The translations under genes and the position numbers were made by a program. Positions 32,795-38,941 of a DNA stretch of 64,000 nt are shown in pieces; the stretch's first letter is position 1, and the number at the start of each line of letters is the position of its first letter. The stretch is from an uncultured Bacillota bacterium. GTDB lineage: Bacteria > Bacillota_I > Bacilli_A > RF39 > UBA660. The stretch is taken from NCBI GenBank assembly GCA_958428295.1, contig CAUAFL010000001.1, positions 37,153 to 101,152 on the forward strand, given 5' to 3'. The notes beneath the pieces were generated by a model. The model had not been told where the DNA came from. It searched no databases and saw only the letters and a program-made list of their open reading frames with translations.

Positions 32795-32830
32795 GTAAGC
32801 AATCTGTCCAGACTTTTATAGTTTAGGGCT
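32771..32830 (+). repeat. copy A of the island-array direct repeat (functional tmRNA 3' end plus ~35-nt flank ...aatctgtccagacttttatagttt)
   Basis: Degenerate copies of this segment recur at 38907, 41387, 43342 and possibly 44491. Confidence 0.6.
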
Positions 32831-32903
32831 TAAATATATAAGTATCAATTTCAAATAAGAAGTTGGTACTTTTTAATTGTTTAAGCAAAGGAGGACAGAT
32901 GAA

Positions 32904-33179
32904 ATGGTAACTATTACAAAGAAAGAATTAGAAATTGATAATGAATTAAAGAACAAAATAGAATTTATATGTAGTTTTTGTAATATTACTCCAACAATTA
33001 TCAATGGTAATATTAGAAAAATTAATAAGATAAATTTAAACTACATAGAACCTCATAGGGTTATTATTAAAGGCATCACATTTCTAGTATTTAATTATTC
33101 TAATGAAATCTTTATTGAGAATTTATCTAATAGAATTAAATTATCAGATTTAGAAACCTTTATTAAGCAATTAAACTAA
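32904..33179 (+). CDS. small island-encoded protein (~91 aa, single CxxC); paralog of 41530-41805
   Basis: ATG at 32904 follows an AAGGAGGA RBS; the ORF track starts at 32877. It shares the KNKIEFICSFC...YIEPHR.IIKGITFL.FNY...IENLSN core with the 41530 ORF. Confidence 0.55.
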   Translation: MVTITKKELEIDNELKNKIEFICSFCNITPTIINGNIRKINKINLNYIEPHRVIIKGITFLVFNYSNEIFIENLSNRIKLSDLETFIKQLN

Positions 33180-33350
33180 ATATAAGTTTTGTACCAACTT
33201 TTTCTAAAATTGTCTTAAAATAGACAAAAAATGGTAAATATGTCTTGATTTTACAATAAAAGAATCTATAATAGGAAAGCAATAAAGAAGTTTTATGTTT
33301 TGTGGGGTTAATATAAAACAAATTAATAAGCAACATATTGGAATTTATGA

Positions 33351-33395
33351 GAGGTGCAAGACATAAAACCTAATGTCTTGCACCTCTTTTTTTAT
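33351..33395 (+). terminator. strong rho-independent terminator (14-bp perfect stem)
   Basis: gaggtgcaagacat-aaaaccta-atgtcttgcacctc followed by T9. The ORF-track start of the recombinase (33373) falls inside this hairpin, so the real start is downstream. Confidence 0.75.
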
Positions 33396-33423
33396 ATATA
33401 AAGATAGAAAGGATTTGAAGTTT

Positions 33424-35217
33424 ATGAATGAAGAAAAGAAAATTTCAGGAATTTATATTCGTGTCAGCACAGAAGATCAGGCTCGTGAAGGTTTTAGTTT
33501 ACCAGAACAAGAAAAAAGATTAAAAGCAATGTGTGAGTACAAAGGTTATGAAATTTATAAGGTATATAAAGATGCTGGAATCAGTGCTAAAACAGGTAAT
33601 CATAGACCAGCATTTGAAGAATTAAAAGAAGATATTAGAAATAAGAAATGTAATACTATTGTTGTTTTAAAATTAGATAGATTAACTCATAGTGTTTATG
33701 ACTGGGAAAATATAATGAAGTTCCTAGAAGAAAATAATGCTTATTTAGATTGTGCGAATGATGATATAAATACGACTAATGCTAATGATAGAATGGTTGC
33801 CAGATTACTTACAGCAGTTTCACAAAATGAAATTGAAAGGACAAGTGAGAGAACTAAAGTTGGACTTGCTGGAGCAATAAAAGTTGGCAATATTCCAAAT
33901 AAAGCACCATTTGGTTATAAACATGTAAATAAGAAACTTGTAATAGATCTACTTACAAAAGATGAAGTAATAAGAATATTTAATTTGTATTATGAGGGAA
34001 ATTCTTATCAAACTATCTCTAATATTTACAATGAAGAAAAAGTTTTTGGAAAAACAAATTGGTGTGATAGTACCATTTTAAGAATACTAGAAAATGAAAT
34101 TTATAAAGGTGATTATGTTCATGGTAAAAAAACAAATCACCCTACTTATTATGAAAATGTTGTAGAGCCACTTGTTTCAAAAGAATTATGGGAAGAATGC
34201 CAAGTCCAAAAGAGAAAGAACTCTAGAAATTATAAGCGAGATAAAGAATATTTGTTTTTACAAAAATTAAGATGTCCTAAATGTAATCGTATTTTAGGTG
34301 GTAATGCTACAAGAAAGAAAAATGGTAAAGTCTATTATTACTATCAATGTACTAGTTGTAAAATAACTATTAAAGAACCTAAAATAGAAGAAACTATTAA
34401 AACTCTACTTGGTGATATTTTAGGGTATGATAATGTTGTTAATGAATTCTTTTTACCAGTTTTAAAATCAAAATTAGAAAATCCAAAAGAAGAATTAAAT
34501 AAGGAATTGAAGAACTTAAACAAGAAAAAAGAAAGAATTAAAAAAGCATATATTGATTCATTATTTACTGAAGAAGAATTTAAAGAAGAAATAAAAATAA
34601 TTGAAGAACAACTAGAATTAATCAATACAAAATTATTAGAAAACGAACAAGCAGAACAATTAAACTTTACTATTGATGATATTCTACTTAAAAGAGATAT
34701 GGATTTTATCAATAAAGTAAAATTACCAATATCTTATTATGCTTTTAATGAAAACTGGGATTTACTAGATAGAGATATTAAAGCAGATATTATTATGAGA
34801 TATGTTGATGATATAGAACTTGAAGTAGAAAATAATAAATATGAAGTAAAACAAGTTAATTTTAGAAGTACCTTTTATAGCGATTTTGAAGAATTATATA
34901 AGCAAAGTTATGTTGATAAAAAACGACCACTTACATATAACTTTAATGGAATATGTACTGACACTATTGTTAGGTATAGTGAATACTTACCAATTAAAGA
35001 AGTTATGCAAAACTTGTATAGATTAAATGAATATTATGAAGTTAATTTATATAAAGGAACTTACTATAAAGAAACCAAAAAATTAGATATGCTACCACTC
35101 AAAAATGGTGAAGTACCTATTAGAATATTCCCATTACAAGACAATAACAATGGAAATGAAAATTGGGTATCAATGGGAATGTTAGCAACAAAGAATACTC
35201 TAAATGATATAAAATAA
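33424..35217 (+). CDS. large serine recombinase (resolvase/invertase-family integrase)
   Basis: N-terminal resolvase catalytic domain with the Ser nucleophile in [11 protein letters not shown]. It also has a recombinase domain, a zinc ribbon (CPKCN...CTSCK) and a C-terminal coiled coil. Confidence 0.85.
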
Positions 35218-36866: not shown

Positions 36867-37370
36867 ATGGAGGTAATTAATATAGATTATAAAATAGAAA
36901 TGGCAAAACTAGAAGACCTAGATGCTATTGATAAATTGATATATGATAGATGCTTATGGTTTAGAGAAAAAGGTGTTAAAGGATGGAGTGTAGATTTCTA
37001 CCCTAATAAATATGACAAAAGTTATTTTATAGAACAAATGAAAATTAATAAATTATTTGTTGCAAAGTTTAATAATAAAATATGTGGTGTTATGCTTTTA
37101 AAAAATGAAGATAAAGATTATTGGAACAATGATGATACTTCTTACTATATTCATCATTTAGCAACTGATGTTAATTTAAAAGGTGTTGGTAAGGCATTGA
37201 TTAATTATGCGATTGAACAATGTAAAATAAATAATAAAAAATATTTAAGACTTGATTGTTATCAAGAAAGTAAATTTCTCAATGAACATTATGAAAAACT
37301 GGGTTTTAACAAAGTTGGAAGTGGAACAGATGAAAATTATAATTTTAATTTATGGGAGATGAAAATATAA
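36867..37370 (+). CDS. GNAT-family N-acetyltransferase
   Basis: 167 aa with an acetyl-CoA binding motif (HLATDVNLKGVGKALINYAIE). Confidence 0.7.
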   Translation: MEVINIDYKIEMAKLEDLDAIDKLIYDRCLWFREKGVKGWSVDFYPNKYDKSYFIEQMKINKLFVAKFNNKICGVMLLKNEDKDYWNNDDTSYYIHHLATDVNLKGVGKALINYAIEQCKINNKKYLRLDCYQESKFLNEHYEKLGFNKVGSGTDENYNFNLWEMKI

Positions 37371-37371
37371 T

Positions 37372-37938
37372 ATGAATACAATAGAATCAATAGAAAATAG
37401 AAGAAGTATTAGACTTTTTAAGAGTGACGATATATCAAAAGAAATAGTTGAAGATATATTAAATTGTGGGAGACTTGCTCCATCTGCAAAAAATAGACAA
37501 CCTTGGTATTTTGTAATAACAAAAGGTAAAACAAAAGATAAAATAGCAGATATGATGATAGAATATACTATAAAAAATGATGATACTATTGAAAGAAAAA
37601 ATTTAGGTTGTGCAAGTAGTGTTAATCCAACAGCAAATGTAATAAAACAAGCACCAATATTAGTTTTAATATTTAGAGAAAAAAATGATAATTGGATTAT
37701 AGGAGATAATCTATCAATAGGTGCTTGTGTAGAAAATATGTGTTTAAGAGCAACTGAGTTAAAAATAGGTACTTTATGGATTAGAGATACTGTATATGTT
37801 GCAGAAGATGTGGCTAAAATGTTGAATCACGAAAATATGGAATTAAATTGTGCTTTAGCACTTGGATATGCAAATCAAAATCCAAAGCAAAGACCTAGAA
37901 AAGAATTAAAAGATATTGTGGAGTGGTTTGATGAATAA
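37372..37938 (+). CDS. nitroreductase-family protein
   Basis: N-terminal RRSIR motif (IENRRSIRLF) and PSAKNRQPW, characteristic of the NADH oxidase/nitroreductase fold. Confidence 0.7.
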   Translation: MNTIESIENRRSIRLFKSDDISKEIVEDILNCGRLAPSAKNRQPWYFVITKGKTKDKIADMMIEYTIKNDDTIERKNLGCASSVNPTANVIKQAPILVLIFREKNDNWIIGDNLSIGACVENMCLRATELKIGTLWIRDTVYVAEDVAKMLNHENMELNCALALGYANQNPKQRPRKELKDIVEWFDE

Positions 37939-38011
37939 GAAAATATTAGATTTTTATAAGTAAACAAGTTTATATACAGATTTAGGGTTATATAAAGAAT
38001 TTGCTAAACAA

Positions 38012-38821
38012 TTGACTAATGATATAGATGAATTATGTGTACTTCAAAGAATGCAAATTATACATCCTATTGCTTATAATGATTTAGATATAAGAAAACA
38101 TAGTAAATGTTTTTGGGGAGATATGACAAAAGTTCCAATTACAAGATTAGATTATGAAGATGATTTGTTTCCTACTGCTTTAAGTATGTTACATGAATTA
38201 TTAAGAAAAGATAATGAATATCATAATGATCGAAAAGCAGAAGATAAAATTCATGTTACTTGTAGAGGATAAGCAATATTGTTAGCAAGTATATTAAAAG
38301 CAAAAGGATATTCTGTAAGAGTTAGAAGTGGTTTTGCTCCATATATCAAATATGATGGTGTTAATTATGACCATTGGATTACTGAATATTTTGATGAAAA
38401 TAAGAATAGATGGGTTTTGGTAGATGCTGATGAACATTGTCCAGATCATGAAATGGGATTTGATTTAAATGATATTCCAAGAAATAAATTTGTTTTTGGT
38501 GCTGAAGCATATTTAGGAATGAGAAATAAAAAGTATAAAGATGAAAAAATATATTATTCTTCTGATCCAGCAACTTTAGGATTAAAAGCAAGTATTCGTG
38601 GTTTGTTTTATGATTTTCATTCACTTATGAATGATGAAATAATCTTTTTACATTTACCAAAATATATTCAAGATAAAAAATTTGAGTTAAGTGAAGAAGA
38701 ATATGTAGAACTAGATAACTTGGCAGAATTATTACTAGATCCAGATAAAAATTTTGACAAAATATTAAACATTTGGAATACAAATCCTAAATTTAGAATA
38801 ATGTCAGGGGCATTAAATTAA
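38012..38821 (+). pseudogene. transglutaminase-like cysteine-peptidase-domain gene interrupted by an in-frame TAA at the conserved Tyr position
   Basis: ORFs 38012-38272 and 38279-38821 are in the same frame, separated by a TAA at 38270-38272. Read through, the sequence gives VTC-R-G-[*]-AILLASILKAKGYSVRVRSGF, matching the TGase core C-x-x-[YF]-A...LLRA.GIPAR with the stop in place of the aromatic residue. The downstream His (DHW) and Asp (WVLVDAD) of the triad are present. Confidence 0.6.
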
Positions 38822-38906
38822 TAAATTTTGATAAAACATATTTGATTATTTAATTAAATGGTTTATAATTATATTAAGAAATATTGTATTGGTTACTTAC
38901 TTTAGC

Positions 38907-38941
38907 GAAAAAAGTTTGAAATAACTTTCTTACTCGCACCA
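38907..38941 (+). repeat. copy D of the degenerate tmRNA 3'-end repeat (gaaaaaagtttgaaataactttcttactcgcacca)
   Basis: It resembles tmRNA 32738-32794 with the T-arm deleted and ends in the acceptor-like gcacca. It is followed by ttattcgaattattcgaa. Confidence 0.45.

Follow-up and report, generated by a model that had tools for sequence, protein, structure and literature searches.

A probable large serine recombinase-driven mobilizable element at a tmRNA 3′ end, and its relatives at the CCA ends of many tRNA genes

How does an element whose only recombinase is a large serine recombinase (LSR) come to lie exactly behind the last base of a transfer-messenger RNA (tmRNA) gene? The question is raised by a 64 000-nucleotide stretch of an uncultured Bacillota bacterium (assembly GCA_958428295.1, contig CAUAFL010000001.1), referred to here as the window, in which an intact tmRNA gene is followed by a 6.1 kb element at 32795–38941, labelled E1. 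Reviews of integrative mobilizable elements (IMEs) describe serine-recombinase IMEs as inserting within genes, and transfer RNA (tRNA) 3′ ends as sites used by tyrosine integrases (PMC5704250, PMC5357655, PMC10484663). Our reading, to which we give a probability of roughly 0.8, is that E1 is an LSR-driven IME with a MobV relaxase, and that it belongs to a family inserting at the 3′ ends of many tRNA and tmRNA genes through exchange at C72–N73. E1 is an apparently intact member of this family, which is large and resides in uncultured, low-GC gut Bacilli.

The region reads, in order, RNase R, a PGA_cap protein, SmpB and the tmRNA gene (ssrA, 32412–32794), as called by ARAGORN, Rfam and Pfam; this gene and all features of E1 named below lie on the + strand. 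The tmRNA gene matches RF00023 over its full length with 149.9 bits, carries the T-loop motif GTTCGA at 32771–32776 and forms the left (B) arm of attL, the left attachment site. The first element base, 32795, stands immediately 3′ of ...CACCA, and a low-GC block starts right after the terminal CCA (GC 0.23–0.28 over 32800–44500, compared with 0.31–0.37 in the flanks). The right end of E1 reads ...AAAAAAGTTTGAAATAACTTTCTTACTCGCACCA at 38909–38941 and closes with ...CTCGCACCA, the last base being 38941. In a comparison of related elements, both ends match the points where similarity among homologs ceases exactly. The stretch C72-A73-C-C-A (32790–32794) is common to the tmRNA end and the right end of E1; because CACCA occurs at both junctions, the crossover is ambiguous within 5 nt, with CA at 32790–32791 as the predicted crossover dinucleotide. 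A scan with the 27-nt tmRNA 3′ end, run as a sensitivity check with up to 3 mismatches, gave one match in the window, the gene itself, with 0 expected by chance; the junction sites B–D discussed below are too diverged to register in it. E1 has the gene content of an IME, namely its own integration module, a relaxase and a candidate origin of transfer (oriT), with no VirB4 or coupling-protein gene in 32795–38941. Open reading frame (ORF) translations and Pfam searches revealed no second recombinase between 32795 and 44600. An earlier note on this DNA had proposed an IME at 32795–38941, at the tmRNA 3′ end, with an LSR as its sole recombinase, and the tmRNA calls, the homologous element ends and the recombinase domains bear this out. 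Its view that insertion restores the RNA 3′ end holds for the last 3–4 nt (N73/CCA), and not for any longer 3′ segment.

To place E1 among its relatives, we compared the surroundings of homologous LSR genes. The LSR has thousands of database relatives, the best 120 of which are 85–96% identical, and hundreds of homologs at 63–96% identity occur in gut Bacilli. A scan of one genome per species gave 453 LSR relatives, and 79 loci at 63–94% identity were fetched, making 80 loci with the window. Nearly all of their hosts are uncultured gut Bacilli, among them Candidatus Onthousia and Clostridium sp. CAG:417, sampled in chickens, rabbits, mice, ruminants and humans. In 55 loci, a + strand tRNA or tmRNA gene ends 60–200 nt before a conserved small ORF, and element sequence runs from the base after CCA. 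The RNA gene called by ARAGORN is on the same strand as the LSR gene, and the distance from its end to the LSR start is 570–680 nt (630 nt in the window), or about 1.18 kb in three loci that carry an insertion. The 55 targets comprise Gly-TCC (9), Thr-GGT (8), Thr-CGT (6), Leu-CAA (6), His (6), Gly-GCC (4), Leu-TAG (4), Leu-GAG (3), tmRNA (3), Phe (2), Cys (2), Gly-CCC (1) and Arg-CCT (1), 13 kinds overall; in the 13 cases with clustered tRNA genes, it is always the last of them that is used. Among the other 25 loci, an upstream flank is missing in 8, the contig starts with a cut tRNA end or bare CNCCA in 4, CNCCA follows the right end of another element (a tandem junction) in 11, and the small ORF is absent from 2. 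Every left junction with readable sequence, 70 of 70, has the element directly behind C-N-CCA (55 complete genes, 4 cut tRNA ends and 11 tandem junctions). The E1-type right arm recurs in many of the loci 3.6–7.2 kb from the tRNA end, that is, 2–5 kb past the LSR gene, with unrelated DNA after it. Mapped copies are 3.6–10.8 kb long, and they share a backbone of small ORF, LSR and Mob with variable cargo.

The arms that flank the exchange point were then compared with the RNA genes. The P′ arm, GTAAGCAATCTGTCCAGAC (32795–32813), contains an inverted GTTC(G/A) copy ending at +19 and is conserved right after CCA in 55 loci. The P arm, GTTTGAAATAACTTTCTTACTCGCACCA (38914–38941), which is the left arm of attR, resembles a T-arm, an acceptor strand and A-CCA, with its predicted crossover CA at 38937–38938. 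We rebuilt the element's own site, attP, by joining each element's right arm to its left arm, and scored reverse-complement symmetry at 24 centres. Over 15 distinct elements, the sole sharp peak falls between C72 and N73, where 14.3 of 25 positions are symmetric as against 3.8–9.7 at the 23 other centres. In 11 elements of four other subfamilies, with ends mapped by pairwise comparison, the value is 11.9 at the same centre and at most 8.8 elsewhere. The attP is an imperfect inverted repeat of about 50 bp whose left arm looks like a stretched tRNA 3′ end, and in E1 its core is CTTACTCG-CA-CCAGTAAG. From one type to another, both arms have changed in concert (CCCAAC/TTGGG, CCCACT/AGTGGG and CTATCG/CCATAG). 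In addition, N73 of the P arm equals the discriminator base of the tRNAs used by that type, with CGCACCA for Thr, Leu, Phe, Arg and tmRNA, CGCTCCA for Gly and Cys, and CGCCCCA for His. In the half-site logos, the tRNA motif G53-TTC begins 19 nt from the centre (50 of 54), and the attP motif GTT(T/C) begins 23 nt from it in the left arm and 22 nt in the right arm, so the outer motif lies 3–4 bp nearer the centre in the tRNA than in the attP arms. Sites of serine integrases (attP of about 50 bp, attB of about 40 bp) are imperfect inverted repeats with dyad symmetry about a 2-bp core that must match between the partners. In structural work that PMC5704250 lists as its ref. 62, Rutherford and Van Duyne reportedly described the motif for the LSR zinc-ribbon domain as shifted outward in attP relative to attB. 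Since the symmetry peak, the motif offset and the discriminator match all fit these site rules, we infer that exchange occurs at C72–N73.

The same element and enzyme could instead exchange strands at or just after the terminal CA of CCA, which would amount to a clean insertion behind the gene with no base contributed by the element. Conservation between elements does begin exactly after CCA, and the shared CACCA block alone cannot place the exchange point. However, the dyad peak of attP falls between C72 and N73, and not at 75/76 or at the boundary behind CCA. Moreover, the P-arm discriminator matches the target in all three classes, a match that would be needless if exchange took place 3′ of N73. 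We therefore consider exchange behind N73 improbable.

The strongest evidence for recent movement, for the boundaries and for the use of several targets comes, as far as comparison of sequences can tell, from near-identical copies at different RNA genes. Left modules of 2.4 kb are 98.4–100% identical at different RNA genes while their host flanks show no similarity. Those of L019 (Thr-GGT), L020 (tmRNA) and L021 (Leu-CAA) are 99.6–99.9% identical, with 99.9% between L019 and L020, and further near-identical pairs are L023/L073, L024/L025 and L009/L010. L082 (tRNA-Phe) and L083 (tRNA-Leu-TAG) have an entire element of 7153 bp in common at 99.6% identity, and on either side they cease to be similar exactly at CCA. 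Because near-identical elements flank different tRNAs and their similarity stops at CCA, the element cannot be the source of the acceptor strand. For E1-type elements, a T-loop crossover of the Dehalococcoides kind was likewise rejected because the near-identical modules of L019–L021 flank tRNAs with different acceptor 3′ strands.

These comparisons also bear on whether E1 is a tmRNA-specific island, with an LSR that recognizes the ssrA 3′ end as in the ssrA islands of Dehalococcoides; the earlier note had focused on the tmRNA in this way. The window element does sit at a tmRNA gene, as do those of L020 and L081, and site D downstream keeps a tmRNA-like 3′ segment. Yet tmRNA accounts for only 3 of the 55 mapped targets, modules 99.7–99.9% identical to that of the tmRNA-borne L020 lie at tRNA-Thr (L019) and tRNA-Leu (L021), and a 94%-identical LSR occupies tRNA-Thr(CGT) in L010, while the window's own gene with the same ..GTCGGCACCA end is unoccupied. 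A tmRNA-specific island is thus very improbable, and the focus of the earlier note was too narrow, since the family uses the CCA ends of at least 13 kinds of tRNA and tmRNA genes. The tRNA-Thr(CGT) gene of the window lies at 51344–51419, ends ...GGTTCAAATCCTTTAGTCGGCACCA and is followed by its native terminator without any insertion. Judged by its sequence and by the occupied counterpart in L010, it is a ready-made, unoccupied target in the same genome.

The enzyme itself has the composition of a serine integrase. The LSR (33424–35217) is a protein of 597 aa with Ser15 as the catalytic residue, assigned from Pfam, PHROG, alignment to TP901-1 integrase and start-codon conservation. It matches Resolvase (PF00239, E = 1.6e-32) and Recombinase (PF07508, E = 8.4e-16), and a PHROG integrase family over residues 4–491 (1.3e-104). 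The N-terminal domain is closest to TP901-1 integrase (6e-20), and RVSTEDQ aligns with the catalytic Ser motif of the latter. The nucleophilic serine, the C-terminal recombinase domain and a zinc ribbon are thus all found, the serine and the zinc ribbon as the earlier note had stated. The zinc ribbon is, however, weak by profile (Zn_ribbon_recom PF13408, E = 8.2e-4, 20.1 bits, below the cutoff of 25.3), although CPKC...CTSC is present; the suggested searches with the resolvase, recombinase and Mob_Pre models all gave matches, and this one fell short. The coiled coil is a prediction from the sequence. The translation start at 33424, rather than the upstream start of the automatic ORF, also holds: the ATG, mostly opening MNEE or a close variant behind an AAAGGA-type ribosome-binding site, is conserved in 70 of 71 related loci, and many relatives have an in-frame stop 0–8 codons 5′ of it. 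That the LSR is instead a resolvase or invertase, with integration performed by a tyrosine recombinase lost or acting in trans, or by Pre/Mob as a site-specific recombinase, is the least probable account, for although tRNA and tmRNA 3′ ends are typical of tyrosine integrases (PMC5704250, PMC10484663) and Mob_Pre proteins were originally named plasmid recombination enzymes, neither E1 nor the 11.7-kb array contains a tyrosine recombinase, the spacing between junction and LSR is constant in most mapped loci (three have a ~550-bp insertion between small ORF and LSR), the C-terminal domains of the LSR are of the full integrase type, the site geometry and short identity block are LSR-like, and the attachment sites do not resemble the oriT-like block.

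In the mechanism that we propose, any tRNA or tmRNA gene with a suitable 3′ end could receive the circular element through the LSR. The enzyme would treat the T-loop (G53-TTCRA), the 3′ strand of the acceptor and C72-N73-CCA together as a half-site of B type, with strand exchange most likely at C72–N73, which is CA in E1. The N-CCA of the element would replace the identical last bases of the gene (N73/CCA, 3–4 nt), leaving the RNA gene unchanged, and the element would supply a terminator right behind it. Because the discriminator base lies in the crossover dinucleotide, the attP base (A, T or C) would set the usable tRNA class. Since the right half of attB seems barely constrained, new copies could insert beside resident ones, giving arrays such as E1–E2–E3–E4. 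After excision, the MobV relaxase would nick the oriT-like region upstream of its gene, and the nicked element would be mobilized by a conjugative helper from outside the window. The junction predicted for the circle joins ...CTTACTCGCACCA to GTAAGCAATCTG..., and the predicted healed site joins tmRNA ...CTCCACCA to TTTAAAAATTTATTCG....

More broadly, this LSR family may use the universal 3′ architecture of tRNA and tmRNA (T-loop, acceptor strand and C72-N73-CCA) as an essentially one-sided attB. The attP arm would be a mimic or a descendant of a tRNA 3′ end, a single attP base change would retarget the element between A73, U73 and C73, and CCA would ensure scar-free repair; we put the chances of this wider scheme at about even. 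If true, it would be a targeting logic not yet described for serine integrases, and it could yield an integrase that finds its landing sites already present in almost every bacterium whose tRNA genes encode CCA. The mechanism would explain how a 3.6–10.8 kb element finds a safe, conserved, multi-copy landing site in any host, and would represent a natural use of the 'programmable' LSR central dinucleotide to switch target class. It would also provide a candidate integrase with which uncultured or non-model Bacillota could be engineered without landing pads installed beforehand.

Several points weigh against this reading. First, the assignment of the crossover to C72–N73, the CA at 32790–32791 and 38937–38938, comes from symmetry and covariation and not from a mapped event. 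Second, the rebuilt attB lacks dyad symmetry, an unusual state for an LSR site, and is symmetric solely in its tRNA half; the earlier note had proposed a check against the LSR attachment-site rules, of which attP symmetry and the 3–4-bp offset agree and attB symmetry does not. As the flanks of apparently virgin sites (L018, L027, L053 and L054) also share no common motif, the right half of attB seems weakly constrained; this is atypical for LSR sites and forms the main mechanistic question. Third, a search of metagenome and viral contig collections with exact patterns spanning P and P′ gave no circular attP junction, a weak negative because such gut samples are possibly few in them. Look-ups of the exact SmpB, downstream deacetylase, EFR1 ferredoxin and LSR proteins gave no empty tmRNA site for this species; what they recovered were occupied sites, or else contigs broken off at the CCA of the tmRNA gene. 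In three further samples (contigs L003, L004 and L088), E1 lies directly behind the tmRNA gene; L089 holds only the E1–E2 junction, and the tmRNA contig of the same sample (L001) breaks at CCA. Since E1 followed by E2 recurs in other samples that span the junction (L088 and L089), the copy in the window may be fixed. With neither a circular junction nor an empty site found, the case for recent mobility comes from comparison across genomes only. The comparison loci are nearly all contigs of metagenome-assembled genomes, although the pattern appears in more than 55 independent assemblies. We identified no conjugative helper.

Three features of E1 itself belong on the same side. No promoter of its own is evident for the LSR in the ~30 nt between the strong terminator upstream and the ribosome-binding site, and expression therefore probably depends on read-through of that terminator. 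A cargo gene at 38012–38821 is broken by a stop codon. Finally, E1 lacks at 38870–38890 10 nt (TGATACAAAT) of a hairpin, TTGATACAAATATTGTATTGAT, that is conserved in about 15 related elements and sits between a conserved outward −10-like box and the P arm; this loss may impair regulation or the binding of an accessory factor.

The relaxase gene (35455–36807) encodes a MobV (Mob_Pre) protein of 450 aa, and the earlier assignment to the pMV158 type is confirmed by the Mob_Pre score (59.6 bits against the Pfam gathering cutoff of 25.5), by alignment to MobM and by both signature motifs. In E1, these are H54-N-x-R57 and H171-x-D-E-x-x-P-H-x-H180, corresponding to MobV motif I (HxxR) and motif III (the HxDExxPHxH metal site), and both are invariant among 44 family members at 44–90% identity. 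Against the MobM structure 4lvi the protein aligns with E = 3.3e-6, with HYDESSPHLH matched to HxDExxPHxH. H54 is probably the counterpart of the catalytic His22 of MobM. The Mob_Pre fold region thus aligns with MobM of pMV158, whereas the overall score to MobM is only 30 bits, and the E1 protein has an N-terminal extension of 30–40 aa and a long coiled-coil C-terminus; it also falls below the NCBIfam MobV cutoff (32.5 against 100). Mob is found in 63 of the 80 loci, and most of the Mob-less ones are truncated contigs, but the gene is also missing from a few complete elements, such as that of L009 (3.6 kb). The region rich in inverted repeats that had been described before the relaxase is indeed present, in the 237-bp spacer between LSR and mob. 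Within it, a non-coding block of inverted repeats (35247–35400), ~150 nt long, situated upstream of mob and conserved across 61 loci, is the candidate oriT. This block contains the hairpin TTCTAAGGT...AACCTTAG and the repeats ATTTTG...CAAAAT, and no known nick sequence was recognized in it.

We compared E1 with the known systems that share its parts. Tn4451 and Tn4453 of Clostridium are alike in being small IMEs with an LSR (TnpX) as sole recombinase, a Mob/Pre relaxase (TnpZ) and an upstream oriT, and Tn4451 exchanges strands at a 2-bp core (PMC5704250). However, Tn4451 inserts with low specificity at GA-containing sites and does not target RNA genes, whereas E1 lies at the CCA end of tRNA or tmRNA; its TnpX N-terminal domain matches the E1 LSR only at E = 2.4e-4, and the E1 family carries a conserved 91-aa protein. 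Pfam finds no DUF4368 in the E1 LSR, which, with the weak TnpX match, places it outside the TnpX clade. The multi-targeting LSRs of Durrant et al. (2022; PMC10083194) likewise form clusters of at least 90% identity at several sites with a short common motif. In contrast to the E1 family, they are typified by DUF4368 and use AT-rich or TT-core motifs in or near protein genes, and the survey mentions tRNA 0 times; the motif shared by the E1 family is the universal tRNA T-loop, acceptor strand and CCA end. Classical tRNA and tmRNA islands with tyrosine integrases (Williams 2002; Islander) also take an RNA-gene 3′ end as attB, keep the gene intact and form tandem arrays. Their enzymes belong to an unrelated family, their identity blocks typically span 15–50 bp or more and each integrase has one cognate tRNA, whereas the E1 family shares 5 nt and uses many tRNAs per element type.

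The nearest precedent at tmRNA is the group of ssrA islands of Dehalococcoides (McMurdie et al. 2011, PMC3146451), which are proposed to be mobilizable and share with E1 the serine recombinases (DsiB/DsiA), the tmRNA 3′ end and tandem arrays with recombinase-less members. Those islands differ in using a CcrB-like DsiB plus a small DsiA, in T-loop insertion with a 20-bp direct repeat, in their restriction to ssrA and in lacking a relaxase. E1 has a single LSR with a TP901-1-like N-terminal domain, 5 nt shared, a predicted exchange at C72–N73, many tRNA targets in its family and a MobV relaxase. E1 is not an island of this type, and its LSR scores 93 bits against the CcrB model, with a cutoff of 900.

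Among elements at protein genes, the staphylococcal cassette chromosomes (SCCmec/SCC, with CcrAB or CcrC) provide a further parallel: an LSR inserts them at the very 3′ end of a conserved housekeeping gene, which stays functional, and they form tandem or composite arrays. SCC thus resembles E1 in LSR insertion at the extreme 3′ end of a conserved gene and in arrays at the site. It differs in having one protein-gene target (rlmH/orfX) and no relaxase, and the E1 LSR lies far below the Ccr model cutoffs.

In the literature searched, whose coverage is incomplete and leaves an earlier description possible, we found no LSR family aimed at tRNA CCA ends. A whole LSR family at 13 or more kinds of RNA gene departs from the textbook and survey-level assignment of tRNA and tmRNA ends to tyrosine integrases, and of positions within or next to protein genes to serine integrases (PMC5704250, PMC5357655, PMC10484663). 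Generic targeting of tRNA ends by an LSR therefore appears to be new, whereas the combination of LSR and Mob/Pre, known from Tn4451 (PMC5704250), and serine recombinases at tmRNA, known from Dehalococcoides (PMC3146451), are not. The earlier interpretation is thus partly supported, being right in kind, too narrow on target and overstated on novelty.

The small ORF between the junction and the LSR gene (32904–33179) encodes the conserved 91-aa protein, behind the ribosome-binding site AAGGAGG. It occurs in 75 of the 80 loci, always in this position where present, and has ~1900–2000 homologs of constant length (1870 in one count), with no family match in any library searched. The AlphaFold (AF2) model, built from a 39-sequence alignment, predicts a beta-alpha-beta7-alpha arrangement with a pLDDT of 89.7, and Foldseek gave no significant match to it in PDB or BFVD. 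The protein may represent a new small fold tied to LSR elements. Its position makes it a conjectural candidate for a regulator or a recombination directionality factor, and with a confidently predicted but unmatched fold it may join the candidate LSR accessory factors. In four loci (L012, a tandem locus, L013, L028 and L029), ~550 bp extra lie between the 91-aa gene and the terminator and LSR.

The element also carries conserved transcription signals. An intrinsic terminator of 13 pairs and a T-run (32840–32876, with the hairpin at 32840–32871) lies just 3′ of the tmRNA gene, and all subfamilies have a counterpart (hairpin and T-run) behind the RNA gene. A second intrinsic terminator separates the small ORF from the LSR gene (33349–33395); its presence had been noted earlier as a 14-bp stem at 33351–33395, and the hairpin proves to have 16 pairs at 33349–33388, followed by the T-run. 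It is kept in every subfamily, with stem sequences that differ yet remain complementary through compensatory changes. As start, ribosome-binding site and hairpin are all conserved across relatives, comparison supports both the LSR start at 33424 and this terminator. A promoter-like sequence, TTGATT-16-TATAAT, stands at 33245–33272, ~75 nt 5′ of the strong terminator, and some subfamilies have a TATAAT box as close as ~10 nt to the hairpin on its 5′ side. Promoter-like site and terminator together (33245–33395) could produce a short leader or a small RNA, or could act as an attenuator controlling the recombinase. At the right end of E1, an outward-facing promoter-like site, also TTGATT-16-TATAAT (38842–38869), is matched in relatives by a conserved −10-like box at about −88; in the circular form, transcription from it would cross attP and enter the small ORF and the LSR gene. 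That an RNA resembling a tRNA or a minihelix runs from this site through the P arm was considered and rejected, because the putative acceptor pairing GCGA/TCGC is not kept in other subfamilies.

The cargo of E1 consists of three genes. Pfam identifies a GNAT acetyltransferase (36867–37370) and a nitroreductase-family protein (37372–37938), as the earlier note had proposed. Its third call, a transglutaminase-like gene, stands less firmly: the frame at 38012–38821 (269 codons) is split by an in-frame TAA at 38270–38272, and a search with the joined frame gives only weak similarity to Transglut_core (E = 0.019, below cutoff). The stop is not a sequencing error, since the same split (86 + 180 aa) occurs in L088 and L089 from two other samples. 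A GNAT at the matching cargo position is found in the window only; one further GNAT match, 33% identical, lies in the host flank of L043, upstream of its element.

Downstream of E1, the array continues with three tandem remnants of related elements, at 38942 to ~44510, which the earlier note had missed. Related junctions lie at 32794 (A), 38941 (B), 41420 (C) and ~43375 (D), and site C has a left arm like that of B and a right arm like that of A. Remnant E2 (38942–41420) holds an EFR1 ferredoxin gene (−), a gene for an XRE helix-turn-helix protein (+) and small ORFs; a type-2 P arm, ...CAACCGCACCA, closes it. Remnant E3 (41421–43375) has a P′ arm, a paralog of the 91-aa protein (41530–41805, 65% identity) and a protein of 362 aa; its right limit is the mosaic site D. 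Remnant E4 (43376–44511) has a P′-like arm, a 298-aa protein and a truncated P-arm fragment (AAAATTGTAGAT...), with host-level GC after ~44500. Pfam and other profile searches gave no recombinase or relaxase gene in E2, E3 or E4, and in this they resemble the recombinase-less 'cis-mobilizable' members of the Dehalococcoides tandem arrays (PMC3146451). Each of the three is bounded by tRNA-end-like P arms and by P′ arms, and each has a small terminator of its own. Because tandem P–P′ junctions are common in related loci (L012, L016, L022, L026 and L052), repeated insertion at an occupied tRNA end is a habit of the family.

Some details of the array deserve mention. Site C (41388–41464) looks like a complete attP-type junction in the chromosome. 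In short-read contigs of other samples, L001 and L002 end exactly at tmRNA ...CTCCA or ...CACCAG, and L007 starts inside the site C arm; such breaks are expected if repeated junctions, or strain differences behind CCA, split the assembly graph. The 362-aa protein of E3 (42189–43277) matches the Gabija anti-defence protein Gad1 below threshold (E = 0.0021, 18 bits where the cutoff is 27) and has no match in PADLOC or PHROG. Relatives of the 298-aa protein of E4 lie on the opposite strand in L056 and L058. At site D (43341–43375), the inner 22 nt (AGATTACTCCTCATCACCACTA) match the tmRNA 3′ end at 18 of 22 positions and the site C P arm at 15 of 22, and the outer part matches C. The inner segment could be a displaced tmRNA 3′ segment from an older T-loop-crossover event as in Dehalococcoides, or could result from gene conversion.

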